From the IMG/VR virus record IMGVR_UViG_3300043409_001137, positions 1-42,535 of that record: a DNA stretch of 42,535 nt; one strand, 5' to 3'. Source of the stretch: a virus. Lineage: Duplodnaviria > Caudoviricetes. The notes under the pieces were generated by a model. The model did not search any database. It was not told the origin of the DNA and saw only the letters and a list, made by a program, of their open reading frames with translations. Positions 1 through 39,212 of this stretch are shown in pieces (positions within the stretch are counted from its first letter, which is position 1; every line of letters begins with the position of its first letter). The position numbers and the translations under genes are program-made.

Positions 1-1178
1 GCACCGGCCCGGCACCCGGCACTGGCACTGGACCGGGCACTGGCACTGGAACGGGCACTGGCACTGGCACTGGAACGGGCACTGGCACTGGAACGGGCAC
101 TGGCACTGGAACGGGCACTGGCACTGGAACGGGCACTGGAACGGGCACTGGAACGGGCACTGGCACTGGAACGGGCACTGGAACGGGCACTGGCACTGGA
201 ACGGGCACTGGCACTGGAACGGGCACTGGCACTGGAACGGGCACTGGAATCCCAACGGGCGGAACATCTATGCCAACGGCCACTTCCGCACTTGATGAGG
301 CCAAGGCACGTTTTGCGCGTATCGCCGGCAACGGTGCAAAGTACGCGCCAATCGCTCTCAAGCAGCTCTACGACAGCGTCGTTCAAAAGGACGCCCCCAC
401 GGCGGAAGACTTCAAGGCCGAGCTCTTTGGCCGGCCCAAGACGGACACCGGTGACTCATCCAATCCCGAGGATGCGTACAACCCGCTCGGGTTCACCGGG
501 TTGGATTTCCTGAAGATGTTCGCCAAGGAAGGCGGCTCCATACACCATTACTCGACAGGATCCACCGTGGACGCCACCCAGAGCTCAGAGACGACGGACT
601 ACGCCGCCAAGATCGCCGCGTTGAAGGCCGACATGGCGAACCGGGACATGCAAGACCTCAAGGACACCTTTGCGAAGCTGGGTGAGGTGTCACCACCCAT
701 CGCGCCAATGTCGCGCCCTACGGTCGCCCAGGGGCGCCACGCGGGGTCCGCCTACGCGCCCAGGCCGATGTCCCAGATGTCGGTGGTGCCGCAGCTCGCC
801 GCGATACTCCAGCGCCGGGGCATGACCATGGCCCAAGGCGGCAACGTCGCCGACCAGTCGCACCCCAACTACAATGGCATCCCGGCGTTTCGCACGGGCG
901 GCCTTGAGGGCCTGGGCGGCAAGTACGTCGAGGGTAAGGGCGACGGCACCAGCGACGACATCGCTGCCATGCTCGCCAACGGGGAGTACGTCTTCAGCGC
1001 CGACGTGGTGGCGGCCCTGGGCAACGGGTCCAACAAAGCCGGTGCATCGGCACTCGACCAGATGGTCAGCAAGATCCGGGAGCGCGCACGATCGGCTCCG
1101 CCTGACAAGCTATCGCCGGATGCCAAGTCGCCCCTAGAATACCTCAAGTCCTCGGCACCCACGAAAGGGGCACGATAA
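1..1178 (+). CDS. Putative virion/internal protein, 5'-truncated; (Gly-Thr)n tract and C-terminal G-x-G-x-S-D-x-I-x-A-x-L-x-x-G-E-Y-V domain
   Basis: The frame of the 270..1178 ORF is open back to the window edge (codons from position 3: T G P A P G T G T G P G T G T...), so ATG 270 is probably internal. GKGDGTSDDIAAMLANGEYVF resembles the GPGTGTSDSIPAxLSNGEFV motif seen in phage tape-measure/virion proteins. Confidence 0.75.
   Translation, partial: TGPAPGTGTGPGTGTGTGTGTGTGTGTGTGTGTGTGTGTGTGTGTGTGTGTGTGTGTGTGTGTGTGTGTGTGTGTGTGTGTGIPTGGTSMPTATSALDEAKARFARIAGNGAKYAPIALKQLYDSVVQKDAPTAEDFKAELFGRPKTDTGDSSNPEDAYNPLGFTGLDFLKMFAKEGGSIHHYSTGSTVDATQSSETTDYAAKIAALKADMANRDMQDLKDTFAKLGEVSPPIAPMSRPTVAQGRHAGSAYAPRPMSQMSVVPQLAAILQRRGMTMAQGGNVADQSHPNYNGIPAFRTGGLEGLGGKYVEGKGDGTSDDIAAMLANGEYVFSADVVAALGNGSNKAGASALDQMVSKIRERARSAPPDKLSPDAKSPLEYLKSSAPTKGAR
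18..248 (+). repeat. Hexamer tandem array (GGCACT/GGAACG) encoding about 38 Gly-Thr dipeptides
   Basis: Directly visible mix of ggcact and ggaacg units, in frame with the downstream ORF. Confidence 0.95.
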
Positions 1179-11337: not shown

Positions 11338-11347
11338 TTCGGGGTCC

Positions 11348-11854: not shown

Positions 11855-11881
11855 CTCGTTTCTCCGTCTCTTGTTGAAGGT

Positions 11882-11911: not shown

Positions 11912-11917
11912 GGTAAA

Positions 11918-14272: not shown

Positions 14273-14401
14273 GAGGGCTCCTACATAGGACAAACGAAAT
14301 GTTGTCCAGCCCAAGTACTATAGCATTGTTGTGAGGCACCACAAGCCCCCTACAACAACTTTTTTGGGGTACCATCGGTTTTTGTACAAAGGAGCAACAC
14401 C
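14273..14401. promoter_or_regulatory. Divergent promoter region between the replication operon and cro/primase
   Basis: - strand extended -10 TGcTATAGT (14325-14317); + strand -10-like TACCAT near 14370; palindrome TTGTG-AGGCAC-CACAA; AAGGAG RBS before 14402. Confidence 0.6.
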
Positions 14402-14611
14402 ATGACCGGGATAGAGCAAGCCGTCGCCGTCGCTGGCAGCCAGCGCAACTTGGCCGAGATGCTGGGCGTCACCCAGCAGCTCGTGAGCTACTGGATCAAA
14501 CAAAAATGCGTGCCCCAGCGCCGCATCGTCGAGGTCGAGCAGATGACCGGCATCAGCCGCGACCTGCTGATCGACCCGCGCCTTGCCGAGCTGCTGTCGA
14601 AGGAGGTGTAG
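14402..14611 (+). CDS. Cro-like HTH regulator (69 aa)
   Basis: AGSQRNLAEMLGVTQQLVSYW helix-turn-helix; strong RBS. Confidence 0.85.
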   Translation: MTGIEQAVAVAGSQRNLAEMLGVTQQLVSYWIKQKCVPQRRIVEVEQMTGISRDLLIDPRLAELLSKEV

Positions 14612-14621
14612 ACTGGCCCCC

Positions 14622-14690
14622 GAACCCCGGCTAGGTGTGGCTGATCCCCATGCCGAAAGGCAAACCCGTCTCTGCCCCGCCGGTAAGTTC
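14622..14690 (+). ncRNA. Candidate structured RNA (three-way junction) in the primase leader
   Basis: Pairings CCGGC/GCCGG, GGTGTGG/CCATGCC and GGCA/TGCC, with a GAAA junction. Function unknown. Confidence 0.45.
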
Positions 14691-14731
14691 ACCATAACCC
14701 GACCGAGACGCGGCCAGAGATTGGGACAACA

Positions 14732-25243: not shown

Positions 25244-28200
25244 ATGGCTAAGGCACCCAGCACCGAGCAGATGAGCGCCGAGCTGCGCGAGAAGGGCCGG
25301 CAGGCGTTCCTGGAACCGAGCAAGGTCAAGGACGTGCTGTACCACGGGTCGCTCAACGACATCAACGAGTTCAAGCCGGGCGCCAAGGGCCTGCTCGGCC
25401 CGGGCGTGTACCTGACACCCCACGCAAAAGCGGCGAGCGGGTACGCGAGCTTCCGGGGCAGGATCAAGGGCGACGCTACCGGCGCCAACGTCGTGCCGGT
25501 GCACGCCCAGATCAAGAACCCGTACTACTTCGACAACGATCCGCTGGTGCCAATGACGAGCGAGCACGTTGAGAGACTGAAGGCGCTCGGGCACGACGCG
25601 GCGATACTGCGGGACACGGAAGGCAACATCAATCAGGTGAACGTGTTCCACCCGCACCAGATCAAGTCGGCAATCGGCAACCGTGGCACGTACGACACGA
25701 CGAACCCAGACATCACCAAGGCCCAAGGAGGCGCTGTGCACCCCACCATCAACCAAATGCGGCAGGCTGTTGCTGCGCGACAAGCAATGCCAAGGTTGGC
25801 TGGCGGCGGCGAGCCGCCCGCTACCCCGCACCCAGGCTATCTGCCCACCGACAACCCCAAGCGGGTATTGATGCCGGCGGAGGGCCCCGGGGGCATCAAG
25901 GGTATCGTCCAACCCAGCCACATGTGGTTGGGCGGAAAACTCCCGGGGGGTAGCCGGTTGGCGGGGATGGGGGAGATCAACGAGGCGCGAGCCTCGGTGT
26001 ACGGGGGCGAACAACGCCCGCCCTTGAAGATCGGGCAGGTAGGCGCATTGCACAAGCGCATACTGGATGCGCACTTCCAGAAGCCGATAACGCAACAGCT
26101 CGCCGATGAGAGCTCGGCGCTGGAGAAGCTCAAAGCGGCCAAGCACATCAGCGGCAACGCGAACACGTTGGACAAGAGCGAGAAGCTCGACACCGTCAAC
26201 CACGAAACCGATTCGGAAGGCCGGCACTACACCGGCATCGCATCCAAAGGCGTGGCGGGGCACTCGCTGTACACGTCGGGCCATGGCGCCGAGCAAAAGC
26301 GCCACGTCATCAACACATGCCCAGGCCAGACCGTAGGCTGCGGGGGCGGTGTCGATGCCAACGGCATTGTGGACACGAGCAAAGGGATTTGCTTTGCGCC
26401 CAATGCGGAAGCACAGTACGCCGGCGCGGCCATCCGGCGGGCGTGCCATGAACAGGCCAAGCACGATCCTGCAATGTCATCCGATTGGATCCTGGCGCAC
26501 ACCGGATCGCTGCGTGGCGTGGCGAACGCGGCGGACAAGCAGAACAAGGTCACGCTGTTCAGGCCCAACGTGGTGGACGAGACCGACGTCTCTTCGCGCC
26601 ATGTGCTGCGCCACCTGAACAAGCAACGCAGGGCGGAAGGCAAGCCTGGGATGATTGCCAACTCCTACGGCAAGACCAACGAGCTGCACGACCCCGAGAA
26701 CGGGTACTACGTCACGCATTCCAATGTCGGGCCAAAGACCAAGCTGGGCACGTCCATCGAGGACCACATTGCCCGAGACAAGCAGCGGGTGCGCAACACC
26801 ATCACCGCCACCGACGCCAGTGGCCGAGACTTCACCAATGACGACGGCAACCCAACGCCACCCAAGAACGCCTACGCGGTAACGGACGTCAAGCGGCACT
26901 CGCCGTTCGATCAACGGATGCAGAAGACGATCACGCACGCCAAGTACTGGGGCGTGGGCAAGCACGTAGAAGAGCTGACGCCTGCCGAGAAAGCCGAGGG
27001 GCCAGAAGGGCACTTCAATGGCGCAGGCAAGCCGGTGTCGGAAGACGCTGCGCACTACGGGCACACGACAGTCAACGACCACCGCTACGACTACCAGAAA
27101 CAGCACATACTGCATCCGCGCCTTGTGCAAGTTGGGAAGAATATCGACGGCACGCCGCACATGATCCCTACCGATTCTCGGTTCAAGGACGACGATTTTC
27201 TGCCCAAGAATCGGTTCAAGACCAAGAACGGTAAGCAAGCCGGCGCAATCATCCTGACTACGCCTACGGAATCAACCAGCAACCTACAGCACCAAGCGTC
27301 TTTTACCCATCACGTAGGGGAAGAAGACATAGCGCATGCGCAAGCGCGCAAAGGTGAGTATGAGATTGACGCACCGGCCAAGCAAGAAGCCAGTCGGGGC
27401 AAAGAGTATGTCCAACCCAAGGGCATCAAATTCTTTGCGCATGGCGGTTCGGTGCACATCACCGGGGGGCGGCACGAAGGGTTGGAGCATGATGATTTCT
27501 CGGCATTCCCCGAGAGAAATTTTGCGGCCCAATGGCACCACTCAAAGCGTGTAGGCATTGAAGACATATCGGAAATGCCGCATGGGCACCTGCCTAAGCG
27601 CCAGCATGCGCCAGTTGTACGGGCCAAGGCAGGCGGCCCCATAGGCTCTGTCTCCATGGACGAGATGCTGGCGCACACCACGTTGGGCAGGAAAATGCCC
27701 AACGTCAGAAACATCGGCGCGGACGAGGCGCCGGACATGAAGGTCAAGCAGTACATCCCGCCGGGTCCGGGCAAGGGCATCGACCTGCCTGCCGGTGGCG
27801 TTGACTTCCAGCCGGAAATGCCGGGGCACCAGCTCACGCAGGCAACGCCCGCCGGCCCTGGCGGCCTCGCTATGGCGGGAATGCCACCAGGAATGCCAGG
27901 GATGCCGCCGGGGATGCCGCCAGGCGGCCCTGGAATGCCCCCAGGCGGCCCTGGCCCGGGCATGCCGGGTATGCCACCGCCGCTGCCCAGGAACCAGCCA
28001 GGGATGCCCACCGGCAAGCCTGCCGGCCTGGAGCCGCCGAACATCCCGCCGCCCAAGCAGAAGCCCACCGGCAGCAACATCCTGACAATGACGCCGCAGG
28101 GGCAGGCGTTGGCGGCACTCGGGCCAATGCGCAAGATGGCCGATGGTGGTGGTGTCAAGCGCAAGGTCGAGGTCAGGCCCACGGTGAAGGACGAGACCCT

Positions 28201-28930
28201 GCAGCGCAAGATCCCCGAGATGGAAACCGCAGTGAAGGCGCTGCACGCGGGGGTAATCGACCACGCCGAGTACGACCGCATCGTGTTGAAGCACAAGCCG
28301 GTCAAGCCCTACGACTTCGTGCCGCAACCGGCCAGCAACGAAGACGCGGCGCGCGCGCTGAAAGATACCCAGAAGCCACACTGGCGCGGCGCAGAACAGT
28401 GGCCTGCGGGCCGCAAGGTTGGCCTGCGCCTGGACATCCCGGCCTACGAGCGCCACGGGGTTTGGGTCAACTCAATCCACGACGAAGAGGGCAAGGAAGG
28501 CGACAAGTTCAACACGTCCTACGGGCCGGTGTCGTCGGTCAAGAATGCCGTGTTTGACCCCAAGCCAGAAAAAGCGGAAAGAGTTGCCACCGGTGAACAG
28601 GATAAGTCACCGTTTGCGCGCATCAAAGGTGAATTACACCCCATAAGCGAAAACGACGCCGTCAAGCTCATGCAGGAGCACCTGCACCACCCCGACTGGG
28701 CCCAGGTGGGTATGGACCCCCGCCGGCACGGGTTCTTCTACGACCGCAAGACCCTGCAACCGGTGACCCACTCCGAACACGTTGTGCAGATCGGCCCGCT
28801 GGTACTGGCAAAGAAACCAAAGTACGGCAAACGCGAAACTTACTCACATGGTGGCGGAGTTACACTCCCGCCATCGACCGAGCAAATGCGGCAGGCCCTG
28901 AGTGCACGACGCTCAAACTCGAAGGCATAG
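25244..28930 (+). CDS. Large multidomain (polyvalent-like) protein: ADP-ribosyltransferase-like N-terminal domain, Cys-containing central domain, Pro/Gly/Met linker, C-terminal domain
   Basis: LYHGS...GPGVYLT...GANVVPV...VFHPHQIKSAIGNRGTYD resembles the ART-PolyVal pattern; TCPGQTVGC...CFA...RPNVVD is GP88-like (weak); 1228-aa open frame between terL and portal. Confidence 0.7.
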   Translation: MAKAPSTEQMSAELREKGRQAFLEPSKVKDVLYHGSLNDINEFKPGAKGLLGPGVYLTPHAKAASGYASFRGRIKGDATGANVVPVHAQIKNPYYFDNDPLVPMTSEHVERLKALGHDAAILRDTEGNINQVNVFHPHQIKSAIGNRGTYDTTNPDITKAQGGAVHPTINQMRQAVAARQAMPRLAGGGEPPATPHPGYLPTDNPKRVLMPAEGPGGIKGIVQPSHMWLGGKLPGGSRLAGMGEINEARASVYGGEQRPPLKIGQVGALHKRILDAHFQKPITQQLADESSALEKLKAAKHISGNANTLDKSEKLDTVNHETDSEGRHYTGIASKGVAGHSLYTSGHGAEQKRHVINTCPGQTVGCGGGVDANGIVDTSKGICFAPNAEAQYAGAAIRRACHEQAKHDPAMSSDWILAHTGSLRGVANAADKQNKVTLFRPNVVDETDVSSRHVLRHLNKQRRAEGKPGMIANSYGKTNELHDPENGYYVTHSNVGPKTKLGTSIEDHIARDKQRVRNTITATDASGRDFTNDDGNPTPPKNAYAVTDVKRHSPFDQRMQKTITHAKYWGVGKHVEELTPAEKAEGPEGHFNGAGKPVSEDAAHYGHTTVNDHRYDYQKQHILHPRLVQVGKNIDGTPHMIPTDSRFKDDDFLPKNRFKTKNGKQAGAIILTTPTESTSNLQHQASFTHHVGEEDIAHAQARKGEYEIDAPAKQEASRGKEYVQPKGIKFFAHGGSVHITGGRHEGLEHDDFSAFPERNFAAQWHHSKRVGIEDISEMPHGHLPKRQHAPVVRAKAGGPIGSVSMDEMLAHTTLGRKMPNVRNIGADEAPDMKVKQYIPPGPGKGIDLPAGGVDFQPEMPGHQLTQATPAGPGGLAMAGMPPGMPGMPPGMPPGGPGMPPGGPGPGMPGMPPPLPRNQPGMPTGKPAGLEPPNIPPPKQKPTGSNILTMTPQGQALAALGPMRKMADGGGVKRKVEVRPTVKDETLQRKIPEMETAVKALHAGVIDHAEYDRIVLKHKPVKPYDFVPQPASNEDAARALKDTQKPHWRGAEQWPAGRKVGLRLDIPAYERHGVWVNSIHDEEGKEGDKFNTSYGPVSSVKNAVFDPKPEKAERVATGEQDKSPFARIKGELHPISENDAVKLMQEHLHHPDWAQVGMDPRRHGFFYDRKTLQPVTHSEHVVQIGPLVLAKKPKYGKRETYSHGGGVTLPPSTEQMRQALSARRSNSKA
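27873..28030 (+). repeat. Low-complexity GMPP/GMPG repeat linker
   Basis: GMPPGMPGMPPGMPPGGPGMPPGGPGPGMPGMPPP. Confidence 0.85.
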
Positions 28931-28931
28931 T

Positions 28932-31547
28932 ATGAACAGAGATACCCGCGACGAAGACCTGGACGAGAATGACGACGGGTCGGTGGACGTAGACCTGCCG
29001 GACGATACCGCCGACATAATGGAAATGCCGGACGGCTCGGCTGTTGTCACCATGGAGACAGTCGGCCCCGAGGAGTCGCGCGACTTCTACGCCAACATGG
29101 CCGAGACGATGGAGACCTACGAGCTTGACCGGCTCGCCATGCGCTACATCGACTTGCTGGAGAAGGACAAGAATGCGCGTGAGGACCGGGACAAGCAGTA
29201 CGAGGAGGGAATTCGGCGTACTGGCCTGGGCAAGGACGCACCCGGTGGTGCCAACTTCATGGGCGCCAGCCGCGCGGTGCACCCGATCATGGCCGAGGGC
29301 TGCGTGGACTTTGCATCACGCGCTATCAAGGAGATGTTTCCGCCTGACGGCCCTGTCAGAACCAAGATCATCGGCGAGGTCGATGACTTGAAGCAGCAGC
29401 GCGCCGAGCGCAAGCGGGACTTCCTGAACTGGCAGATCACCGAGCAGATCGAGGAGTTCCGGGACGAGCAAGAGCAGATGCTCACCCAGCTCCCGCTGGG
29501 CGGCTCGCAGTACCTCAAGGTTTGGTACGACGAGCAACAGAAGCGCCCAACAATCGAGTTCCTGCCAATCGACCGGATCATCCTGCCGTTCGCCGCGTCC
29601 AACTTCTACGCGGCGCAGCGCGCTGCCGAGGTCCACGAGATCACCGAGTGGGAGTACAAGCGGCGCGTCAGCAACGGCATGTACATCGACGGGTTCTCGT
29701 TCACGTCGTCCATCGAGCCCGAGCAGACCAAGGCGCAGAAGGCCAACGACAAGATCGAGGGCAAGGCGTTCCAGGACAACGAGGACGGCCTGCGCAAGGT
29801 CTTCCACATCTACACCTACCTCGAATTCGACGACGACAAGCACAGCGACGGTGAGATGGCCCCGTACATCATGATGGTGGACGAGCAGTCCAGCAAGGTG
29901 ATCGGCCTGTACCGCAACTGGGAGGACGGCGACGACACGATGACCAAGCTCGACTGGATCGTCGAGTTCAAGTTCATCCCCTGGCGTGGTGCATTCGCAA
30001 TCGGCCTGCCCCACCTGATCGGCGGGTTGTCGGCGGCGCTCACCGGCGCGCTGCGCGCGCTGCTCGACTCGGCGCACATCAACAACGCCGCGACGATGCT
30101 CAAGCTCAAGGGCGCCAAGCTCTCGGGCCAGACCCAGCAGGTCGAGGTCACCCAGGTCGCCGAGATTGAGGGCGCGCCGGGCGTGGACGACATCCGCAAG
30201 ATCGCGATGCCCATGCCGTTCAACCCGCCGTCACCGGTGCTCTTCCAGCTCCTGGGCTGGCTCAGTACCGCCGCCAAGGGGGTGGTGACCACCAGCGAGG
30301 AGAAGATCGCTGACGTCACGTCCAACGCGCCGGTGGGCACCACCCAGGCGCTGATCGAGCAGGGCGCGGCGGTCTACTCCGCCATCCACGCCCGCCTGCA
30401 CAAGTCGCAGGAGCGGCTGATCAAGATCCTGTGCCGCCTGAACCGGTGGCACTTCGACGAGATGCGCAAGGGCGACATCGTCGAGGACATGAACATCCAG
30501 CGCGACGACTTCAACCGCAACACCGACGTCATCCCCGTCAGCGACCCGCACATCTTCAGCGAGACGCAGCGCATGGCGCAGATGCAGTCGGTGCTGCAGC
30601 GGTCGGACAAGAACCCGGACCTGTACGACGCGAAAGCGGTGGAGGAGCGGTTTCTCAAGCAGCTCAAGATCCCCAACGTCAGCGAGCTCTTGCGCAACGT
30701 GCCGGCACCGGAGCAGCGCACCCTGGCGGACGAGAACGCGGCCATGTCAATCGGCCAGCCGGCGTACGCCTACCTGCAGCAGGACCACATCTCCCACATC
30801 CAGGGCCACCTGATGTTCGGCCTGGACCCGTCGTTCGGGTCGAACCCGTTCATCGCGCCGCAGTTCACGCACAACGCGATCGAGCACATCAAGCAGCACA
30901 TGACGCTCTGGTACCTGAACCGCATGAATGGTTACGTGGCGAACCTGCGCGGCGGCAAGCCGGTGGCGAACTACGACAACCCCAAGCTGACCGCGATCAT
31001 CGACCAGCTCTACGCGAGCGTTGGGCAGCACGTCGCGCTCGACAGCAAGGAGGTCTTCTCGCAGATCCTGCCGCAGATCCAGCAGCTCCAGCAGGTCGCC
31101 CAGCAGTACGCACCCGCCGCGGTCCTGCCGCCCGACGCCCAGGTGGTCAAGGACACCTCGATGGCCGAGACCAAGCGCAAGGAGGCCAAGGACCAGCAGG
31201 ACATGCAACTCGCCCAGGCCAAGCTGCAGTCAGACATGCAACGCGATCAGGCCGACACGCAGAACAAGGGCCAGCTCGAACAGGCCAAGGCCCAGGCCGA
31301 CGTCCAGCGGGCCCAGGCTCAGATGCAGATTGAAATGCAGCGCGAACAGGCCAAGGCCCAGGCCGACATGCAACGCGAGATGGCGCAGATCCAGGCCGAC
31401 ATGCAGCGCGAGCAGTTGCGCAGCGATACCCAGATCAAGATTGCCGAGATGCAGCGTGAGGCGCAGATAGCGATCGAGAACGCTAAGATACTGCACCAAA
31501 CAGTAGTAGCAACCCAACCCCAAGGAGTACCAAATGGCAACATCTGA
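28932..31547 (+). CDS. Portal protein (P22-like, long C-terminal coiled-coil barrel)
   Basis: Start ATG 28932; size and position after terL; HPIMAE..VDF, GLPHLIGG, APVGTT.ALIE motifs; Q/A-rich 11-residue repeats at the C-terminus. Confidence 0.88.
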   Translation: MNRDTRDEDLDENDDGSVDVDLPDDTADIMEMPDGSAVVTMETVGPEESRDFYANMAETMETYELDRLAMRYIDLLEKDKNAREDRDKQYEEGIRRTGLGKDAPGGANFMGASRAVHPIMAEGCVDFASRAIKEMFPPDGPVRTKIIGEVDDLKQQRAERKRDFLNWQITEQIEEFRDEQEQMLTQLPLGGSQYLKVWYDEQQKRPTIEFLPIDRIILPFAASNFYAAQRAAEVHEITEWEYKRRVSNGMYIDGFSFTSSIEPEQTKAQKANDKIEGKAFQDNEDGLRKVFHIYTYLEFDDDKHSDGEMAPYIMMVDEQSSKVIGLYRNWEDGDDTMTKLDWIVEFKFIPWRGAFAIGLPHLIGGLSAALTGALRALLDSAHINNAATMLKLKGAKLSGQTQQVEVTQVAEIEGAPGVDDIRKIAMPMPFNPPSPVLFQLLGWLSTAAKGVVTTSEEKIADVTSNAPVGTTQALIEQGAAVYSAIHARLHKSQERLIKILCRLNRWHFDEMRKGDIVEDMNIQRDDFNRNTDVIPVSDPHIFSETQRMAQMQSVLQRSDKNPDLYDAKAVEERFLKQLKIPNVSELLRNVPAPEQRTLADENAAMSIGQPAYAYLQQDHISHIQGHLMFGLDPSFGSNPFIAPQFTHNAIEHIKQHMTLWYLNRMNGYVANLRGGKPVANYDNPKLTAIIDQLYASVGQHVALDSKEVFSQILPQIQQLQQVAQQYAPAAVLPPDAQVVKDTSMAETKRKEAKDQQDMQLAQAKLQSDMQRDQADTQNKGQLEQAKAQADVQRAQAQMQIEMQREQAKAQADMQREMAQIQADMQREQLRSDTQIKIAEMQREAQIAIENAKILHQTVVATQPQGVPNGNI

Positions 31548-31695
31548 TCAAGAGCAGCAAAGTATCCTCGTGCCCATGCACAAGCGCATGGCGCAGGGCG
31601 CGAAACTCGACGGCACCAGCATGCAACCCAAGGGCGGCAGTAAAGCCCCGGCCAAACCCACCGGGGGCTTGAGCCACCTGAAGAAGCAGAAGTGA
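31534..31695 (+). CDS. Small basic hypothetical protein (53 aa; not in ORF track)
   Basis: AAGGAG RBS; MATSDQEQQ...LKKQK. Confidence 0.65.
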   Translation: MATSDQEQQSILVPMHKRMAQGAKLDGTSMQPKGGSKAPAKPTGGLSHLKKQK

Positions 31696-31865
31696 TTGGT
31701 GCGCTGATCCATGTGATCAAGGACCGGCAGGCGGCGCTCCGCCTGTCGCTTGCGCAGGGCCACGCCCCTAATTTTGAAACCTACCAGCGCCTTGTCGGTG
31801 AATACCAGGGCCTGCAGTGGATGTTGGATGCGATTGACGCGAAACTCGCGGAGCAAGACGAATAA
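31692..31865 (+). CDS. Small hypothetical protein upstream of groES (57 aa; not in ORF track)
   Basis: GTGA overlap; LAQG...FETYQRLVGEYQGL. Confidence 0.7.
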   Translation: MIGALIHVIKDRQAALRLSLAQGHAPNFETYQRLVGEYQGLQWMLDAIDAKLAEQDE

Positions 31866-31883
31866 GGCCATCTGGCCCCAAGT

Positions 31884-31924
31884 GCGCTGAAATATGCGCT
31901 GTCAAAACGCACTGAAATATGTGC
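31884..31924 (+). repeat. Two tandem mini-hairpins with identical TGAAATAT loop
   Basis: GCGC-TGAAATAT-GCGC (31884-31899) and GCAC-TGAAATAT-GTGC (31909-31924). Confidence 0.85.
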
Positions 31925-31940
31925 TTTGTGTGGAGTTTGT

Positions 31941-32396
31941 GTGGAAAACGTAGCGAAAATTCACCTTATCGAGGGTATTTCGAGGCCATCTGACGAGTCC
32001 GAGCTTGCTTGGTCTTTCCCAGACGTCGATCCGGGCCTTGCCCCGCTCGGCGGGCGCATTCTGGTGCAACTCAGGCGCACCAAGAAGCAAAAAGGCCGCA
32101 TTATCTTGGTCGAAGAGACCCGCGAGACCGAGAAATGGAACGGTCAGATCGCCAAAGTGGTCGCCATCGGCCCGTTGGCGTTCAAGAACCGCGACACCAT
32201 GGCCTCCTGGCCCGAGGGGAGCTGGACAGCGATCGGCGACTACATCCGCGTGCCCAAATGGGGCGGGGATCGGTGGGAACGCCCCGCGCCGGGCGACGAT
32301 CGTCACGAGGACCCGGTGCTGTTCATGGTGTTGAACGACCATGAGATCATCAGCAAGGTCACCTGTGACCCGTTGAGCTTCAAAGCCTTCGTTTAA
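31941..32396 (+). CDS. groES: GroES/Cpn10-like co-chaperonin
   Basis: PLGGRILV...GRIIL...KVVAIGP...GD...KWGG...LNDHEII; GTG start after GGAG. Confidence 0.85.
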   Translation: MENVAKIHLIEGISRPSDESELAWSFPDVDPGLAPLGGRILVQLRRTKKQKGRIILVEETRETEKWNGQIAKVVAIGPLAFKNRDTMASWPEGSWTAIGDYIRVPKWGGDRWERPAPGDDRHEDPVLFMVLNDHEIISKVTCDPLSFKAFV

Positions 32397-32406
32397 GGGG
32401 ACGACC

Positions 32407-33351
32407 ATGGCCGAAAAAGACAAGAACGAAGAAATAATGCACGTCGAAGAGGACACCGACGGCACCGCGACCGTTGAGCTCCCCGATAGTGTTGATTTCT
32501 CGCAGGGCGGCGATGCTGGTGAGCCTCGCCAAGCCGATGACGGCGACGTCGACCACCCGGACGACAGCGAGGCCGTCAGGGCCGCGCGCAGGGCACGCCG
32601 GCGCTCCAAGAAGGACCTGATCCGCAAGACGAACGAGGAGAAGGACGTCCGCCTCGGGATGCTGCAGCGTCAGAACGAGGAGCTGATGAACCGGCTCTCG
32701 AACGTCGAGCGCAAGACCCAGCAGCACGACCTGGGCCGGCTCGACAAGGCGATCGAGGACCAGGGCGTGCGGCTTGAGTACGCGAAGATGAAGTTGTCCG
32801 AGGCCACGGCCAACGGCAACGGCGATGACGCGGTGCAGGCGCAGGAACTGCTCTACGAGGCCCGTAAACAGCTCGACGAGCTCTCGGCAGTGAAGCGGCA
32901 GGCCAACCAGCCCCAGGCGCCCCAGCAGCGCCCTATCGACCCCGGGGTGCAACGCCACGCGGCCAAGTGGATTGACCGCAACGAGTGGTACAAGCCGGAC
33001 CTCTCCGACACCGACAGCAAGATTGCCAAGCAGGTCGACGAGTCCCTCGTCACCGACGGTTGGAACCCGGGGACAGCCGAGTATTGGGACGAACTTGACA
33101 GCCGCTTGCAAAAGTATCTGCCGCATCGTTACAATCGGGCCGAAGGGGGTGGATCCAGATCGCCCCGGAATGTCGTGGGAAGTGCAGGACGCGAGGCATC
33201 AGCCGCTTTTGGGGGCACGAACCGCACCTTTACGCTATCAGCCGAACAGGTTCGAGCGATGAAGGACGCGGGGATGTGGGAAGACCCTGCAAAGCGGGCC
33301 AGGATGGTCAAGCGTTACGCAACCGAATCACGAAACAACCGGGGGTATTGA
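32407..33351 (+). CDS. Capsid scaffolding protein (putative)
   Basis: Acidic N-terminus, long coiled coil, C-terminal LSAEQVRAMKDAG helix; lies upstream of capsid genes. Confidence 0.7.
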   Translation: MAEKDKNEEIMHVEEDTDGTATVELPDSVDFSQGGDAGEPRQADDGDVDHPDDSEAVRAARRARRRSKKDLIRKTNEEKDVRLGMLQRQNEELMNRLSNVERKTQQHDLGRLDKAIEDQGVRLEYAKMKLSEATANGNGDDAVQAQELLYEARKQLDELSAVKRQANQPQAPQQRPIDPGVQRHAAKWIDRNEWYKPDLSDTDSKIAKQVDESLVTDGWNPGTAEYWDELDSRLQKYLPHRYNRAEGGGSRSPRNVVGSAGREASAAFGGTNRTFTLSAEQVRAMKDAGMWEDPAKRARMVKRYATESRNNRGY

Positions 33352-33352
33352 A

Positions 33353-33901
33353 ATGGAATCACGTCTCAAAAAATCTTTGAATGCTGGTGGACGCGAAACT
33401 CGTGCGAACGAGGACGCAAGCCGGGCAGCACCAGAGGAGAAGTTTGCTTCTACGCAGGAACGTCGCAAGATGTGGAGCGAGGAGTGGACGCAATCAGCAC
33501 TGCCCAGACTGCCAGAACTGTCAGGTTGGCACCTTTGCTGGCTTTCAACCACCAACAGCTACGACTCCATCGACAAGAGAATCCGCCTCGGGTACGTTCC
33601 AGTTAAGTCTGAAGAGTTTCCCGGGTACGAAGACTATCGCGTCAAGGCAGGCGAGCACGTTGGGTACATCTCATGCAACGAGATGCTGCTGTTCAAGTTG
33701 CCGATGGATGTTTTCCAGGAAGTGATGACGGTCATGCACCATGAGCGCCCTCAAGAGGAAGCGGACAAAATCCGACTCCAGATGGAGAACCTGCAGAACG
33801 CACGCGACAGCAACGGTCGAGCTCTGATGTCCCCGGTTGAGGGTGAAGGATCAAGCAACCCTGACAGGCAACCAAATCGCACGCCGGTGTTTGCCGGCTA
33901 A
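33353..33901 (+). CDS. Hypothetical head-module protein (182 aa)
   Basis: Coupled to the scaffold gene; GWHLCWLS...RLGYVPV...LLFKLP. Confidence 0.7.
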   Translation: MESRLKKSLNAGGRETRANEDASRAAPEEKFASTQERRKMWSEEWTQSALPRLPELSGWHLCWLSTTNSYDSIDKRIRLGYVPVKSEEFPGYEDYRVKAGEHVGYISCNEMLLFKLPMDVFQEVMTVMHHERPQEEADKIRLQMENLQNARDSNGRALMSPVEGEGSSNPDRQPNRTPVFAG

Positions 33902-33915
33902 CAAGGAGTACGAAT

Positions 33916-34485
33916 ATGTCAGCGACATCAGCTCCGTTCGGCTTTCGCCCCGCTTACCACCCGACAGGGTTGGACCGAGCGACGGTGTTGGCAAACGGTA
34001 TCGCCAGTGCTTATAACACCGGCATCCTCAAGGGCCAGCCAGTCGCTCTTGACACCAACGGCAACATCGTCATTGCCACGGCAGGCTCCGCCTTCATTGG
34101 CGTGTTTGCTGGTGTCGAGTACACCGACCCGTCGGGCCGTCGTCAGATCAACAACCAGTGGCCCGCGAACACCGCGTACCAAACTGGCTCTTGCCTCGCC
34201 TACTTCTACCAAGAACAGACGATCGTGTACGAAGTGCAGTCGAACGCCACCCTGGCGCAGACTTCCATCGGTGACCAAGCCAACATGGCAAGCGCCACAG
34301 CCGGTAGCACGACCACCGGCCTGTCGCAAGCAATGTTGGGCACCGTTGTTGGAGCGAGCTCGCAAGGCGACTTCCGCATCATCGACATCGCACCCTACAT
34401 CGACAATGAGTGGGGCGATCCTTTTGTGATTGTGCGCGTGCAGATCAGCCGCCATCAGTACACAGCTAACATCGTCGCCATCTAA
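33916..34485 (+). CDS. Putative capsid decoration/cement protein (189 aa)
   Basis: AAGGAG RBS; APFGFRP N-terminus, beta-rich; immediately upstream of the major capsid gene. Confidence 0.65.
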   Translation: MSATSAPFGFRPAYHPTGLDRATVLANGIASAYNTGILKGQPVALDTNGNIVIATAGSAFIGVFAGVEYTDPSGRRQINNQWPANTAYQTGSCLAYFYQEQTIVYEVQSNATLAQTSIGDQANMASATAGSTTTGLSQAMLGTVVGASSQGDFRIIDIAPYIDNEWGDPFVIVRVQISRHQYTANIVAI

Positions 34486-34496
34486 GGAGTCCAATC

Positions 34497-35411
34497 ATGG
34501 CCGCACCAATGCGCAGTACGGACTTCCGGAGCATCGTTGAGCCTATCCTCAACGAGTGCTTCGATGGGGTCTATGACCAACGAGCCGACGAGTGGAGCCG
34601 AGTGTTCCGCGAGGAAGACGGCATCCCCCGCAACTACCACGAAGAGCCGGTTCTGTACGGTTTCGGAGCGGCACCGCAACTGCCTGACGGCACACCGGTG
34701 ACCTACCAGCAGGGCGGCGTGCTGTTCCTGCAACGCTACCTGTACAAGGTCTACGGTCTGGCGTTCGCGCTGACCAAGGTCCTGGTAGAGGATGGTGACC
34801 ACATCCGTCTGGGTCAGGTGTACGCACGTCACCTTGCGCAGTCGCTCGTGGAGACCAAGGAGCTGCTGTCCGCCAACGTCTTGAACTACGCTTTCAACAG
34901 CTCGTTCCCAGGCGGCGACGGCGTTTCCCTGATCAGCGCCTCGCACCCGATCGTCAATGGTGTCTTCAGCAACCAGCTTGCCACCGCCGCCGTGCTGTCG
35001 CAGACCTCGCTTGAGCAGATGCTCATTCAGGTCCGCTCTGCCGTCGACAACAACGGCAAGAAGATCCGTCTGGTCCCGCGCCAGCTCATCGTTGCCCCGG
35101 GCAACATCTTCCAGGCAGAGGTTCTGCTCAAGTCGGTTCTGCGTACCGGCAACGCCAACAACGACATCAACCCGGTCAAGTCGATCGGGCTGCTGGACGA
35201 AGGCGCCGCCGTTATCAGCCGCTTGACCAGTGCCACCGCTTGGTGGGTGCAGACCGACGCGCCTGAAGGGTTCAAGATCCTGATGCGCCGTCGCCTGGAG
35301 AAGACGATGGAAGGCGACTTCGAGACTGACTCGATGCGCTACAAGGCAACCGAGCGGTACGCTGTCGGCTTCACCGACCCGCGCGCCGCCTACGGCACGC
35401 CCGGCATCTAA
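34497..35411 (+). CDS. Major capsid protein (304 aa)
   Basis: AAGGAG RBS; GFGAAP...YGLAFALT...DGVSL...LIVAP...AWWVQTD...RYKATERY..GFTDPR; followed by a strong hairpin. Confidence 0.88.
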   Translation: MAAPMRSTDFRSIVEPILNECFDGVYDQRADEWSRVFREEDGIPRNYHEEPVLYGFGAAPQLPDGTPVTYQQGGVLFLQRYLYKVYGLAFALTKVLVEDGDHIRLGQVYARHLAQSLVETKELLSANVLNYAFNSSFPGGDGVSLISASHPIVNGVFSNQLATAAVLSQTSLEQMLIQVRSAVDNNGKKIRLVPRQLIVAPGNIFQAEVLLKSVLRTGNANNDINPVKSIGLLDEGAAVISRLTSATAWWVQTDAPEGFKILMRRRLEKTMEGDFETDSMRYKATERYAVGFTDPRAAYGTPGI

Positions 35412-35422
35412 GATGCCACCAG

Positions 35423-35445
35423 GGGCGGGGATCTGATCCCCGCCC
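35423..35445 (+). terminator. Strong hairpin after the capsid gene (terminator/mRNA stabiliser)
   Basis: GGGCGGGGAT-CTG-ATCCCCGCCC; no U-tract. Confidence 0.55.
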
Positions 35446-35490
35446 TACCCAATTCAACAGTGTTTGGTCAAACTTTTCAAGGAGCAGACC

Positions 35491-36459
35491 ATGCCCCAGT
35501 TTTCAGATGACCTTTTCCTGGGTCCCGCACAGGGCTACCAGGGAACCGGTTCGTACGCCAACACGGCGACCTTTACGGGTTCAGTTGCCACCACCGTTCT
35601 GACGGTCACCGAGATGCTCTCGGGCGACCCGATCACCGTGGGCATGTACGTCGACAGCGCCAACATCTCTGTGGGCACGTACATCACGGCCTTTGGTGGT
35701 ACCGGCGCTGGTGGCGTGGGCACCTACACGGTGAACACCTCGCAGACCGCAGCCAGTGCCACGGTGACTGGTGCAGGCAACGCCCTGGCGGGTAACCCCG
35801 CGCCGATGTCGCTTGGTGTTGGCCCCCTGGGCCGGATCTACGTCTTTGACGTGGTGCCGCAGACCCTCAACGCGGCGAACATTGCTGCCTCGCAGACGCC
35901 TACCGGTACGAGCGTCACCCTGACTGCTGGCACCACCGTCAAGTCGGTTGTCCGCTCAAACGGTGCCACCGTCCTGCAGTTGGACTGCCCGCGTGCGTTG
36001 TCGGTGTCCCTGTTGGTGGGCGGCACTGCCCGCGCCTACACCATCTCCGGGTTTGACTACTACGGGCAAGCGATGTCCGAGGTGATCACCAGCGTTGCTG
36101 CTGCGACCACCAACGGCAAGAAAGCCTTCTACCAGATCTCCGGGGTTACCGGCGCTGGCGGTTCGGTTACCGCGATCACGATCGGAACCACCCAATTGAT
36201 CGGGCTGCCGGTTCGTGTCACCGATGCCGGGTACATTGGCACCGCTGGCTGGGGCAACACCCTGGCCCGCAACGCTGGCACGCTTGCGGTTGCGGCGACT
36301 GCTGCGGCCACTACCGCCACGGGCGACGTCCGAGGCACCTACAGCCCGTCGTCGGCGCCGGATGGCATCAAGCGGCTGGTCCTGGGCATCCTGTTGCCGG
36401 GTATCGCTGTTGGTCCGAATGCCACCCGCGTCGGCGCGTTCGGCGTCACGCAAGCCTAA
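35491..36459 (+). CDS. Virion structural protein (Thr/Gly/Ala-rich, 322 aa)
   Basis: AAGGAG RBS before ATG 35491 (MPQFSDDL); beta-rich; follows the capsid gene. Confidence 0.7.
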   Translation: MPQFSDDLFLGPAQGYQGTGSYANTATFTGSVATTVLTVTEMLSGDPITVGMYVDSANISVGTYITAFGGTGAGGVGTYTVNTSQTAASATVTGAGNALAGNPAPMSLGVGPLGRIYVFDVVPQTLNAANIAASQTPTGTSVTLTAGTTVKSVVRSNGATVLQLDCPRALSVSLLVGGTARAYTISGFDYYGQAMSEVITSVAAATTNGKKAFYQISGVTGAGGSVTAITIGTTQLIGLPVRVTDAGYIGTAGWGNTLARNAGTLAVAATAAATTATGDVRGTYSPSSAPDGIKRLVLGILLPGIAVGPNATRVGAFGVTQA

Positions 36460-36471
36460 AGGGAGAGCGAC

Positions 36472-38058
36472 ATGGGTCAATTCAAACCAATGGTCAAGAT
36501 GATGACCACCGAGCCATCGGTGATCCTCAAGCTCAAGAAGGGCGGCCACGTCAACATGAAGGACGACGCTTGCGAGCAGGACGGTCACTCGCCCATGCGC
36601 AAGGGCCTGACGGTCGCGATCGCCGTGGGCAAGCCACGCGGCGGGGATGCCGAGGGCGCGAGCCCCGGCAAGCCGTCAATGTCCGAGCGTCGCAAGGCCA
36701 TGGCCGCGCCCTTCATGTCCAAGAAGGGCGGCAAGGTCATGAAGAAGGCCGACGGCGGCATGGTCGATCCGAACAACTTTGCCAATATGCCTGCGGGTCC
36801 TGCGCAGACCGCAGCGATGCGCAGTGCGGTTGGCTTGCCTGACACCACCGACAACTTTGCCAACATGCCTGCGGGTCCTGCGCAGACCGCAGCGATGCGC
36901 AAGGCCGTTGGCTTGTCTGATGCGCCTACTGTCCCCACTCCCAGGGTCCGACCACCGATGCGTGGTGGCCGGGGCATGATGGGCATGGCAGAGATGAAGA
37001 AGGGCGGCAGCACCGACATGGCGCAAGACAAGGCCATGATCAAGAAGGCCATGCGCCAGCACGACGCCCAGGAGCACAAGGGCGGCAAAGGCACCAAGCT
37101 GGCGCTCAAGGGCGGCGGCGCCAGCTCTTTTGCCAACACCAAGATGCACGACGGCGACAAGACTGACCGCGCCAAGGGCACTGGTGGCGTCCGCACGGGC
37201 ACCGCGGGGTACAAGAACGGCGGCTCAATTGCGCCGTTCGTGAACACCAAGATGCACGACGGCGATCGCTACGACTCGGCCAAGGGCACTGGGGGCGTCA
37301 AGATGGCGAACTCCGGCGGCTACAAGTCGGGCGGATCCATCGACTGGGCCAACCGGCCTGCCAACACCTCGAAGCCCGGCATGACGGGCACCAGCACCGC
37401 TGGTGTGCGCAATGGCAACGCAGGCGGCTACAAGATGGGTGGTGCCGCAAAAAAAGCCTACGCCACGGGGGGCAGTGTTGACACTGGTCGTCCCGTGGCG
37501 TACGCCAGCAAGCCGGCTTCCAAGCCGGTGAGCAACACGGCGCAGTCAGGCACCTTCAAGAAGGGCGGCAAGGTCACCATGAAGGCCGATGGTGGCCCCA
37601 TGGTTGACCGCAGTCGCGGCGCTTACGCCAAGGCCATTGGCCCTGACGAGAGCGACATGGACATGGCCCGCTCGATCCGCAGCGCCCCAGGCAAAGCCTA
37701 CGACGCGGTCAAGCGGTTCGTGACCCGGGACCCGGGTGCCGGCGCTGGACGGGGGTTCGTGAACCCCCCGATGGCCCGCAAGAAGGGCGGCGTGATGTGC
37801 AAGGCTGACGGCGGCATGGTTGGCCCGGACGCTTTGCCGCAAGGCATGCCGGGGGCTGGTGTACCGGCGGGCATGCCCACCGGGATGCCGCCCATGGGCA
37901 TGCCCACGATGGCGAATCAGCCTTCCCTGGAGGCGCAGCAGGCCATGCAGAAGGTGCTTGGGGCCCCCGATACGGGTGGCCTGTCGGGGTACAAGCGTGG
38001 CGGGTCCGCCAAGCGGGTACACCGGCATACTTCCGCAGCCCTACGGGCCATGCAGTAA
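36472..38058 (+). CDS. Lys/Gly/Met-rich low-complexity protein with 14 xxxGG motifs (528 aa); possible -1 frameshift short form
   Basis: GGGAG RBS; repeated KKGG/ADGG/YKxGG units; internal duplications. Confidence 0.8.
   Translation: MGQFKPMVKMMTTEPSVILKLKKGGHVNMKDDACEQDGHSPMRKGLTVAIAVGKPRGGDAEGASPGKPSMSERRKAMAAPFMSKKGGKVMKKADGGMVDPNNFANMPAGPAQTAAMRSAVGLPDTTDNFANMPAGPAQTAAMRKAVGLSDAPTVPTPRVRPPMRGGRGMMGMAEMKKGGSTDMAQDKAMIKKAMRQHDAQEHKGGKGTKLALKGGGASSFANTKMHDGDKTDRAKGTGGVRTGTAGYKNGGSIAPFVNTKMHDGDRYDSAKGTGGVKMANSGGYKSGGSIDWANRPANTSKPGMTGTSTAGVRNGNAGGYKMGGAAKKAYATGGSVDTGRPVAYASKPASKPVSNTAQSGTFKKGGKVTMKADGGPMVDRSRGAYAKAIGPDESDMDMARSIRSAPGKAYDAVKRFVTRDPGAGAGRGFVNPPMARKKGGVMCKADGGMVGPDALPQGMPGAGVPAGMPTGMPPMGMPTMANQPSLEAQQAMQKVLGAPDTGGLSGYKRGGSAKRVHRHTSAALRAMQ
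36775..36921 (+). repeat. 78-bp tandem duplication (NFANMPAGPAQTAAMRxAVGLxD x2)
   Basis: Near-identical copies start at 36775 and 36853. Confidence 0.9.
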
Positions 38059-38083
38059 AAATGGGGGCTCCGGCTCCCATTTT
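38058..38083 (+). terminator. Hairpin/terminator
   Basis: AAAATGGGGGC-TCCG-GCTCCCATTTT. Confidence 0.7.
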
Positions 38084-38103
38084 CCCAATACCAGGAGAAG
38101 TAC

Positions 38104-38835
38104 ATGGGCACTTATTCTTCCGTAACGCGCCAAGGCACGTATGAGCCATTTGAACTGCAAGTTGCCCGTGGACAAATCCAAGGGCATGAAGTTCTCAACA
38201 TCTTTGGCTTTGCTTCTGCTGTTAGCACCAGCTTCGTAGCTGTGTGGGAAAACAACGCTGCGTATGTGTTTCCTACTGTTGCATCAACTATGGTTGTGTC
38301 TAGTAGCTCCGCTTCTGACACGGCGGTCAGCGTTCAAATTTTTGGATTAGATGCAAGCTATAACCGTATTACGGAAGTAGTTGCTTTGAACGGCACAAGC
38401 AATGTAGCGACAACAAACGTATATTGGCGCATTAACAATGTGATAACTACCGCTGGAACCGCCGCTGGAACCGTGTATGTTAAGAATGCTGGCGGTACGA
38501 CCTATGCCCAAATTGCTATTGGCAACGGTAAAACAAATATGTCTGTTTTTACTGTCCCCGCAGGCTACACGGCATACATGACTCAGTTTGATGGGTTCTC
38601 ATCTACCTCGGTAACTTCTGGCGTATTTGCAACCATCAGAGCACTTATTACAAGCTCCACAGGCATCAGTAACGTGGTGATCGCTGCTCCGTTTCTAAAT
38701 ACTTTTGCTGTTACACGGCCATATCCAAATGTGCTTGTTGAAAAGGTAGACTTTCAATTGCAGTGTAAGTCTAGTGGCGCAGGCTTAGGCATCGGCGTTT
38801 TGGGGATTGGCGCGTTGATCAAAAACGCGGACTGA
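38104..38835 (+). CDS. Putative virion structural protein (243 aa, lower GC)
   Basis: AGGAG RBS; FELQVARGQI.GH...FG; beta-rich; many A/T-ending codons. Confidence 0.7.
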   Translation: MGTYSSVTRQGTYEPFELQVARGQIQGHEVLNIFGFASAVSTSFVAVWENNAAYVFPTVASTMVVSSSSASDTAVSVQIFGLDASYNRITEVVALNGTSNVATTNVYWRINNVITTAGTAAGTVYVKNAGGTTYAQIAIGNGKTNMSVFTVPAGYTAYMTQFDGFSSTSVTSGVFATIRALITSSTGISNVVIAAPFLNTFAVTRPYPNVLVEKVDFQLQCKSSGAGLGIGVLGIGALIKNAD

Positions 38836-38837
38836 TC

Positions 38838-39212
38838 ATGCCGAGCAAGTCACTTGCCCAGCATCGTCTCATGGAGGCCGCCGCCCATACCAAGGGCGGG
38901 TTCGGTGGCGTCCCGCAGAAGGTCGGCAAGGAGTTTGCCAAGGCCGACAAGGGCAAGTACGCCGGCGGTGGCGTGTCTCTCGCCGTGGGCCGCAAGGAGA
39001 AGCTGCCCGTTGAGCGCGGCGCTGGGCTCACCCAGAAAGGCCGCGAGAAGTACAATCGGGAGACCGGATCGCACCTCAAGGCGCCGCAGCCCGGCGGGGG
39101 TGGCCGCAAGGACTCGTTCTGCGCCAGGATGTCCGGCGTGGTGGAGCACTCGAAGGGTGACGCACCCCGCGCCAAGGCGTCGCTGAAGCGTTGGAAATGC
39201 CCCGGCTGGTAA
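38838..39212 (+). CDS. Small basic two-module protein (124 aa)
   Basis: MPSKS.AQH.LM module, YAGGGV linker, then GLT.KGR..YN..TG..LKAP...SFCARM...W.C module. Confidence 0.75.
   Translation: MPSKSLAQHRLMEAAAHTKGGFGGVPQKVGKEFAKADKGKYAGGGVSLAVGRKEKLPVERGAGLTQKGREKYNRETGSHLKAPQPGGGGRKDSFCARMSGVVEHSKGDAPRAKASLKRWKCPGW

Follow-up and report, generated by a model that had tools for sequence, protein, structure and literature searches.

Introduction

Adenovirus protease and ASFV pS273R, both of clan CE, cleave after Gly-Gly, and the prohead proteases T4 gp21, phiKZ gp175 and SPN3US gp245 process internal proteins. As is proposed below for our phage, prohead-protease systems place a short sequence code in many head proteins and free small basic peptides. 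However, the sites of those systems have Glu at their end and require a protease of the assemblin fold, and the capsid protein of our phage itself lacks the motif. The adenovirus and ASFV systems resemble this phage in that Gly-Gly separates the modules of their structural precursors.

The T5 tape measure protein pb2 is reported to be cut after R1127, from proteomics and intact-mass LC-MS (PMC10038345). The site is disputed: an earlier study mapped the cut behind V1148+/-1, and trypsin, too, cleaves at R1127 (PMC11937520). Lambda gpH is cut into pieces of about 78 and 14 kDa, how and where being stated as unknown (PMC12617516). The accessible literature yielded no mapped cut sites for Douge, JBD30, TM4, phiCbK, phiTE, DT57C or phiRIO-1, and the JBD30 tape-measure site given there, 1066, is a software prediction.

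In crAss001, gp45 (C1) is a proven internal cargo protein, resolved in two pieces, residues 214-245 in the tail and 425-552 at the portal; within the accessible text, its authors take it to stay uncut and to thread the portal whole, and do not propose cleavage (PMC10172136). Polyvalent proteins, like the 1228-aa protein below, combine ART-PolyVal with other swappable modules in a late gene beside portal and terminase; the accessible text of Iyer et al. 2017 names no shared joint motif, with 0 occurrences of 'glycine' (PMC5512222).

Results

The window, a stretch of 42,535 nucleotides, has a podovirus-type gene layout. The family of this phage counts about 2,800 stored stretches with a close capsid match, and the hosts of its distant relatives are Caulobacter, Pelagibacter and cyanobacteria. 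Several proteins of the window carry a motif with consensus [F/Y/M/K/L]-[A/K]-x-G-G-x-[V/I] and core x-[A/K]-x-G-G; a literature search, mostly of papers outside subscription, found no description of it in print. The features are:

3..1178, + strand: C-terminal end of gene 1, its start lost at the window edge; Gly-Thr repeat; orthologues found
927..1175, + strand: 'G-E' domain (G.G.G.SD.I.A.L..GEYV), common to siphophage tape measure proteins
25244..28930, + strand: 1228-aa polyvalent protein
25718..25738, + strand: motif KAQGGAV at the end of the ART module; x[AK]xGG kept in 14/16 aligned relatives
25796..25816, + strand: weaker motif LAGGGEP; x[AK]xGG kept at 5/7 aligned positions
27434..27454, + strand: motif FAHGGSV, kept in 12/12 aligned relatives
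27623..27643, + strand: degenerate motif AKAGGPI where a module begins; x[AK]xGG kept in 4/10
28136..28156, + strand: motif MADGGGV, kept in 13/14 aligned relatives
28841..28861, + strand: degenerate motif YSHGGGV preceding a 28-aa basic C-tail; x[AK]xGG kept in 2/4
28932..35411, + strand: motif-free context (portal, GroES-like, scaffold-like, conserved 182-aa, cement-like and major capsid proteins)
36472..38058, + strand: 528-aa protein rich in Lys and Gly; its motif copies (36532-37990) comprise 11 that score high and 3 weak ones
38838..39212, + strand: 124-aa protein comprising a 40-aa module, a degenerate motif (38958) and a DUF6321 module

An earlier note on this DNA had listed ten copies in the 1228-aa protein, the 124-aa protein and the first gene, all of which translate exactly as listed, and 14 in the 528-aa protein, all present in its translation. 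On scoring, AKAGGPI (-2.9), YSHGGGV (0.0), YAGGGV (-0.3), SKKGGKV (0.6), RKKGGVM (-2.5), FRTGG and LKGGGAS (both below -3) did poorly. YQQGGV in the capsid protein, set aside earlier as a chance partial match, scores at chance (-2.3).

A first matrix, whose sole training set was the 528-aa orthologues from 12 relatives, matched the window 11 times. All of these matches lie in the 1228-aa or the 528-aa protein; the remaining window genes, with 11,376 aa and 74 GG, have 0. A second was trained on 64 proteins from the terminase-to-portal slot, a set that excluded the window as well as its two closest relatives, and compared with a null in which GG positions were fixed and other residues shuffled. 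Its matches number 4 for the 1228-aa protein (expected 0.33; p=0.001), 11 for the 528-aa protein (expected 0.80; p=0.0003), 2 for gene 1 (expected 0.14; p=0.007), and 0 for both the 124-aa protein and the 52 other window genes. Training sites were chosen by a pattern derived from the earlier note's, so that the locations and not the pattern are independent. The motif is real and enriched beyond chance, and the enrichment over shuffles for which the note proposed a check is seen for the 1228-aa protein, the 528-aa protein and gene 1.

At 697 motif sites synonymous codons are free and all 16 of 16 Gly-Gly codon pairs are used, which places the signal at the protein level and rules out a DNA repeat. 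Positions -3, -2 and +2 are constrained, with V/I conserved at +2. The motif may bear some resemblance to HINT-like autoprocessing; its position -4 is mostly G/H/K/R, rather than Cys/Ser.

The 1228-aa protein is a polyvalent protein by its diverse effector modules and its late-gene location, between terminase and portal among late/virion genes. It comprises an ART-PolyVal module (~1-159, E=1.3e-15), a GP88-like module (~190-731, E=0.005), a short module, a Pro-rich module (795-965), a module at 966-1200 and a basic tail, and MuF, zincin and assemblin domains were absent from it by Pfam and PHROGs. These modules are shuffled among relatives, and the motif copies do fall at module boundaries, as had been suspected. 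For comparison with the conservation listed above, aligned GG sites outside the motif keep their GG in 64 of 145 cases.

The same arrangement extends across relatives. Alignment ends, which mark their module breakpoints, lie within 15 aa of the motif in 94 of 302 cases (29.5+/-5.1 expected), against 67 (67.7 expected) for other GG sites. Alignment ends and starts both include the motif, which makes it a shared joint rather than a property of the upstream module alone. Of 32 stand-alone modules that begin near a motif, 21 do so at its first two positions, and two families supply most of these cases. Of 163 small slot proteins, 41, belonging to 15 unrelated families, bear a C-terminal copy with only 6-35 residues behind it, as do 0 of 614 core proteins. 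An N-terminal tag was rejected, as no ORF among the examined loci begins with the motif.

The predicted motif-to-motif pieces of the 528-aa protein are 1-8 kDa, and 13 of 14 are basic; its orthologues have 8-13 copies each, some in tandem 8-9 residues apart. The fold model of the conserved 182-aa protein is poor (pLDDT 42), and its ESM Atlas neighbours are unnamed.

What had been called the first gene does carry motif copies, at 522 (AKEGGSI) and 828 (MAQGGNV) with a degenerate one at 888 (FRTGG), but it is a cut-off end rather than a whole gene, its frame being open from nt 3. Orthologues of 281-1578 aa are present in 19 of 20 relatives searched, and gene 1 is predicted to be the first gene of the ejection block. 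Its G-E domain matches PHROGs tape-measure families, the tape measure proteins of Douge (E=4.9e-9) and JBD30 (E=0.042) and a segment of lambda gpH (pairwise hhalign, E=6.3e-5). The Glu is invariant across 150 homologues, and the GG directly ahead of the domain is lost in many family members. The order x-A/K-x-G-G then G-E domain is seen in gene 1 and its orthologues, together with the Douge, JBD30 and lambda matches. The G-E domain may be a reader of the motif or a self-processing domain.

Profile comparisons (HMM and hhalign; for T5, on short segments) detected no homology between the gene 1 domain and crAss C1 or T5 pb2C: the crAss_CARG1 (PF25725) HMM matched in 0 of 5 genomes, and hhalign gave 0.3-0.7% against the gene 1 domain. 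Its nearest Pfam cluster in the ESM Atlas is that of crAss C1, at 0.82, a lead only. Fold searches with a weak model of the C-domain (pLDDT 56) reached at best Z 4.0 or E 3.6.

Both cut tape measures have the order found in gene 1. In T5 (pb2 to pb2* and pb2C) and lambda (gpH to gpH* and gpHC), x-A-x-G-G is followed by G-E within 15-45 residues. The reported T5 site reads R|AEGG, and we had written down the register x|A before inspecting it. The site scores below the matrix threshold; pb2 has three x[AK]xGG among its five GG, and a further site that fits is RALGG at 138-142. Among 4 distant T5-like phages, 3 retain RAxGG and the fourth has RAVGN. Lambda gpH has FATGG at 733-737, ahead of the segment that matches the gene 1 domain, in a Gly/Ala-rich region with several candidate sites. 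Unlike the window phage, with its many copies across predicted head cargo, T5 and lambda have one cut in a tail protein.

crAss001 gp45 occupies the genomic slot of gene 1, after the tail genes and before the remaining ejected proteins, and shares its modular build, with the pattern at each joint and a basic C-tail past the last copy. In gp45, x-[AK]-x-G-G lies at seven joints, the final copy directly ahead of that tail. Each of the two resolved pieces falls between two motifs, and residue 425 is a motif Ala; the modelled chain begins at A425 and passes the Gly-Gly, and the density extends across A425-F-G-G-W (PMC10172136). Among 119 close gp45 variants, precisely 266-375 is missing from 61 and 261-329 from 3, each deletion running from one motif to another. 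That the gp45 joints and the reported T5 cut share the motif is new here. crAss C1 differs from the window phage in its looser consensus, x-A-x-G-G, in the restriction to a single protein and in the lack of a PF25725 match to gene 1; the G-E element behind its motif is seen by pattern only. Against its own composition the loose pattern is not significant in gp45 (9 vs 5.4, p=0.076), and within crAss001 it is limited to that protein (1 of 55 GG in 22 others).

When the published crAss001 MALDI peak lists were re-matched, gp45 (91 kDa, 12 copies) exceeded chance in none of the 13 bands. In the same gel lists the portal (93 kDa, 12 copies) and gp47/49/50 are detected at full length, and gp46, which is motif-free, is likewise not clearly detected.

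The earlier note saw no recognisable protease, and this holds: Pfam peptidase families are absent also among 121 proteins of four complete relatives (mostly at least 90 aa, one per cluster). Neither a recognisable clan-CE cysteine protease fold among those proteins nor, in the phage and these relatives, an assemblin-fold protease gene with Glu-ending sites of the T4/phiKZ type was found. The PHROG 'head maturation protease' matches of the capsid protein are to fusion profiles, of which they span just the capsid half.

Discussion

The motif marks module joints and C-terminal ends of probably head-packaged proteins, and we somewhat favour the reading that it is a maturation site, cut between its first residue and the Ala/Lys. 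Because it lies at the reported, if disputed, T5 cut and brackets the gp45 pieces, it is likely a cutting site, before Ala, and the register is likely x|A/K-x-G-G rather than GG|x. The earlier note was right to pair cutting with docking as the options, and the balance of support now lies with cutting.

The cargo would comprise the ART module and others of the polyvalent kind, together with the basic 528-aa protein, gene 1 and small proteins of basic character. It would enter the procapsid as long precursors, anchored there through short tails that are basic or helical. A cut at every motif would then free modules small enough for portal passage and remove the tails, and new modules could be gained by recombination provided the motif flanks them. 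The candidate enzyme would be the G-E domain behind the motif, present in gene 1 and tape measures and, by pattern only, in crAss C1; it would process itself first and other cargo afterwards. Tentatively, and with more doubt than confidence, this could extend to an ancestral self-processing module of x|A-x-G-G plus G-E that cuts the lambda and T5 tape measures and chops crAss C1 into head and tail pieces; in this abundant aquatic podophage family it would have become a plug-in polyprotein code, a portal-bound G-E ring maturing tagged cargo without a classical prohead protease.

The strongest alternative, which we consider rather unlikely, is an uncut docking tag bound by the scaffold, portal ring, capsid interior or G-E domain, which would load the procapsid and gain avidity through its copies. 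The C-terminal copies on unrelated small-protein families suit such a tag, as do the 8-13 copies per 528-aa orthologue and the ordered A-F-G-G of the portal-bound crAss domain, together with the lack of a recognised peptidase in the four complete relatives; tandem copies, and 11-14 copies in one protein, are as compatible with multivalent binding as with cutting. However, docking leaves unexplained both the T5 cut reported at the same register and the missing 91-kDa gp45 band, the motif occurs in siphophage tape measures, which do not enter heads, and DUF6321 also stands alone in relatives, in the same slot, without the motif. A second recurrent helix, P-S/T-x-x-Q-M-R-x-x-L, and W/C-ending tails could instead be the true tags.

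It is improbable that the motif is a flexible joint and recombination seam, its short identity permitting module swaps with no protein reader. Breakpoints and natural deletions do coincide with motifs, but the free codons and the constrained positions speak against a seam, C-terminal copies join nothing, and the reported T5 cut coincides with the motif. Least probable of all is cleavage behind the Gly-Gly pair by a cysteine protease, whether of C39 type or of clan CE (adenovirus/ASFV-type), the latter being the analogy first drawn and likely in the wrong register: an invariant GG with an upstream hydrophobic residue presumably resembles such sites, but the gp45 density extends across the GG, the reported T5 cut falls two residues before it, at the Ala, V/I is conserved at +2, and no such protease family was recognised in the four complete relatives.

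If the maturation-site reading is true, it gives exact testable sites, lambda F733|A734 and T5 R1127|A1128, plus a candidate enzyme. Twelve gp45 chains, if cut to pieces of 4-29 kDa, need not thread through the portal. It would also explain how virions of this family gain effector modules without a MuF loader, and would offer a portable cargo-release tag for engineered phage heads. The motif is also borne by phages MinM2, HTVC027P and RW.

A Gly-Gly motif with matrix matches in only three window proteins

The motif under study reads [F/Y/M/K/L]-[A/K]-x-G-G-x-[V/I] (short form x-[AK]-x-G-G). It was examined in the following features:

3..1178 (+), gene 1, only its C-terminal end present
927..1175 (+), G-E domain of gene 1 (G.G.G.SD.I.A.L..GEYV)
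25244..28930 (+), 1228-aa polyvalent protein, putative cargo
36472..38058 (+), 528-aa protein, Lys/Gly-rich
38838..39212 (+), 124-aa protein with a DUF6321 module

All motif copies listed in the earlier note are present in these proteins, and the motif is enriched over shuffles with GG positions held (p 0.007 for gene 1, 0.001 for the 1228-aa and 0.0003 for the 528-aa protein). Scored with two motif matrices, both trained with the window excluded, most copies were borne out; about one third scored weakly, several of them where relatives have strong copies. Window matches of both matrices were confined to gene 1, the 1228-aa protein and the 528-aa protein, with 0 matches at 74 GG sites in the other 52 window genes. 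Across 12 relatives, none occurred in terminase (29 GG sites), portal (49), capsid (23), adaptor (39), tail fibre (149) or two tail proteins (52, 95); the scaffold gave 2. A motif-like copy lies near residue 40-60 of the scaffold orthologues in one sub-group only (G014, G017, G019, G020). Codons vary freely at 697 sites, so the signal acts at the protein level. We found no description of the motif in open-access papers.

Placement at module joints and C-ends

We establish the motif, its confinement, its placement at joints and C-ends, and its association with the G-E domain. Among 66 proteins of the terminase-to-portal slot, 94 of 302 internal alignment ends had a motif no more than 15 aa away (null 29.5±5.1; maximum 49 in 2,000), as did 87 of 366 starts (35.8±5.5). 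Control GG sites gave 67 of 302 ends (67.7 expected) and 102 of 364 starts (83.1 expected). Breakpoints accounted for 129 of 220 motifs; another 58 lay no more than 80 aa from the C-end, 13 were clustered and 20 lay elsewhere. The window's 1228-aa protein, whose copies had been said to fall between domains, indeed splits at motifs as its relatives do.

Modules of the 1228-aa protein
ART module: ends at residue 165
Large module: ends at about 770-790
Pro-rich module: ends at 972
Last module: ends at 1207

Stand-alone DUF6321 proteins lack the motif, and their start aligns with the first motif residues of the fused form.

Of the 163 distinct small proteins encoded from the 528-aa gene up to the adaptor, 79 carry the pattern. 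Copies within 45 aa of the C-end occur in 41 of the 163, spanning 15 unrelated families (0/614 in core proteins); hence the motif also occurs outside fused modules. That it is a passive seam left where modules join is, in our judgment, improbable. Nearly all of these small, basic, unrelated proteins (loci L002-L081) end in W or C (37 of the 41), perhaps as a common C-terminal signal.

Another short helix, P-S/T-x-x-Q-M-R-x-x-L, is often found just after the motif or at the start of a protein; it occurs at 25250-25290, 25739-25780 and 28860-28910 and in many relatives, and may itself be what tags proteins for loading. In the 528-aa protein, about 60 relatives share nearly identical first 25 residues (36472-36545), a likely anchor; the remainder varies (248 to 628 aa).

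The motif precedes the G-E domain

Tape measures of hundreds of siphophages contain the G-E domain (E=4.9e-9 for Douge, 0.042 for JBD30), with the motif immediately ahead of it there and in phage RW, which lacks the 1228-aa and 528-aa genes. It also aligns with the segment behind FATGG in gpH, the lambda tape measure (hhalign E=6.3e-5, pairwise on a hand-picked stretch). Among 10 distant relatives, mostly partial regions, 5 gave a match to the domain, 1 a weak match and 4 none. Observed/expected motif counts in the first group were 5/1.1, 6/1.0, 8/1.3, 2/0.5 and 0/0.4; the weak case had 2/1.1, and the four with no match had 0/0.7, 0/0.3, 0/0.6 and 1/0.6. These counts fit a link between motif and domain in a small sample of kindred phages. 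Gene-1 orthologues of six relatives (G002, G003, G006, G007, G008, G013) carry the domain in tandem duplicate, the second copy opening with its own motif.

Cargo protein gp45 and the tape measures

A lead from the ESM Atlas (crAss_CARG1, score 0.82) pointed to crAss001 gp45 (cargo protein C1), placed inside virions by cryo-EM and MS (PMC10172136). Its x-[AK]-x-G-G copies have GG at 209, 263, 332, 373, 427, 562 and 828, the last ahead of a basic tail. Two pieces are resolved, residues 214-245 (tail) and 425-552 (portal), and each lies between two motifs. The portal piece begins at motif Ala 425, implying a cut between x and A of x-A-x-G-G, a register noted before T5 was examined. Among 119 close variants, motif-to-motif modules were lost in 61 and 3, representing few independent events; of 24 other large indels, 22 were not at these motifs. 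The loose pattern in gp45 alone is not significant (9 vs 5.4, p=0.076); in 22 other crAss001 proteins it occurs at only 1/55 GG. Profile comparison detected no link between gene 1 and gp45. On re-matching 13 MALDI peak lists (source data of PMC6235969, supplement 8), portal, gp22, gp23, gp25, gp26, gp32, gp36, gp44, gp47, gp49 and gp50 stood out in their own bands; gp45 exceeded chance in 0/13, and motif-free gp46 was likewise not clearly detected.

The T5 tape measure pb2 is reported as cut after R1127 (PMC10038345), where the sequence is RAEGG, cut between R and A, then G-E. Three of its 1,218 bonds are compatible with this register, and RAxGG is present in 3/4 distant T5-like phages. The site is contested: an earlier study gave V1148±1, and R1127 is a trypsin site (PMC11937520). 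Lambda gpH is cleaved to about 78 + 14 kDa, with site and enzyme stated as unknown in PMC12617516; a cut between F733 and A734 would give 79.8 + 12.5 kDa, and adjacent Gly/Ala-rich sites match equally well. In Aeromonas phage AhSzw-1, the unannotated tape-measure C-terminal stretch (NC_047950.1 90814-91335) has two in-frame stops, which read as either sequence errors or recoding.

A proposed cleavage site

Virion proteins that mature by proteolysis are a known kind, as is polyvalent cargo; new here are the proposed cut register and its connection with two classic, still unsolved cleavages of tape measures. We lean towards the motif being a site cut directly before its Ala/Lys. Motif carriers would be packaged in the virion, loaded via tails or helices later cut off. 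Such cuts would release pieces of 17, 62, 7, 17, 27 and 3 kDa from the 1228-aa protein and 14 peptides of 1-8 kDa, 13 of them basic, from the 528-aa protein; these predicted peptides would be similar to digested core proteins. Among 121 proteins of four complete relatives none was recognised as a peptidase, so the cutter would be a host enzyme or a protein whose fold went unrecognised. The G-E domain is the favoured candidate and the 182-aa protein another; predicted folds of both were poor. A docking tag that stays uncut seems unlikely, and cutting after Gly-Gly very unlikely.

Genome setting

The window, a linear virus record, is about 71% complete; by comparison with 12 relatives of 50-59 kb, the missing part carries tail genes and the beginning of gene 1. 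Gene 1 opens a predicted ejection-protein block, its role inferred from position and a lytic transglycosylase at 3853. The podovirus-type late block comprises terminase, 1228-aa protein, portal, GroES-like, scaffold-like, 182-aa, cement-like, capsid, 331-aa, 528-aa, 243-aa and 124-aa proteins, adaptor and tail fibre. The capsid protein has close matches in about 2,800 stored stretches. Cultured kin are Caulobacter phages RW/GB2A/RLK/KcrB (capsid identity 76%), Pelagibacter HTVC023P/027P, Roseobacter CRP-901 and cyanophage MinM2.

The GroES-like (31926-32396) and 182-aa protein genes (33353-33901; the latter with about 2,000 homologues, no family) stay beside scaffold and capsid even at about 40% capsid identity. 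The replication block (7201-16792; PolA, SNF2 helicase, primase) is common to relative G010 and phage RW, most relatives having a different set. An F5/8 type C (discoidin) domain is inserted in the adaptor (39222-40292), which is followed by an HNH gene in some relatives only, and gene 1 has a long Gly-Thr repeat (ACTGGC/ACTGGA-type) at positions 3-250, where the window truncates it.
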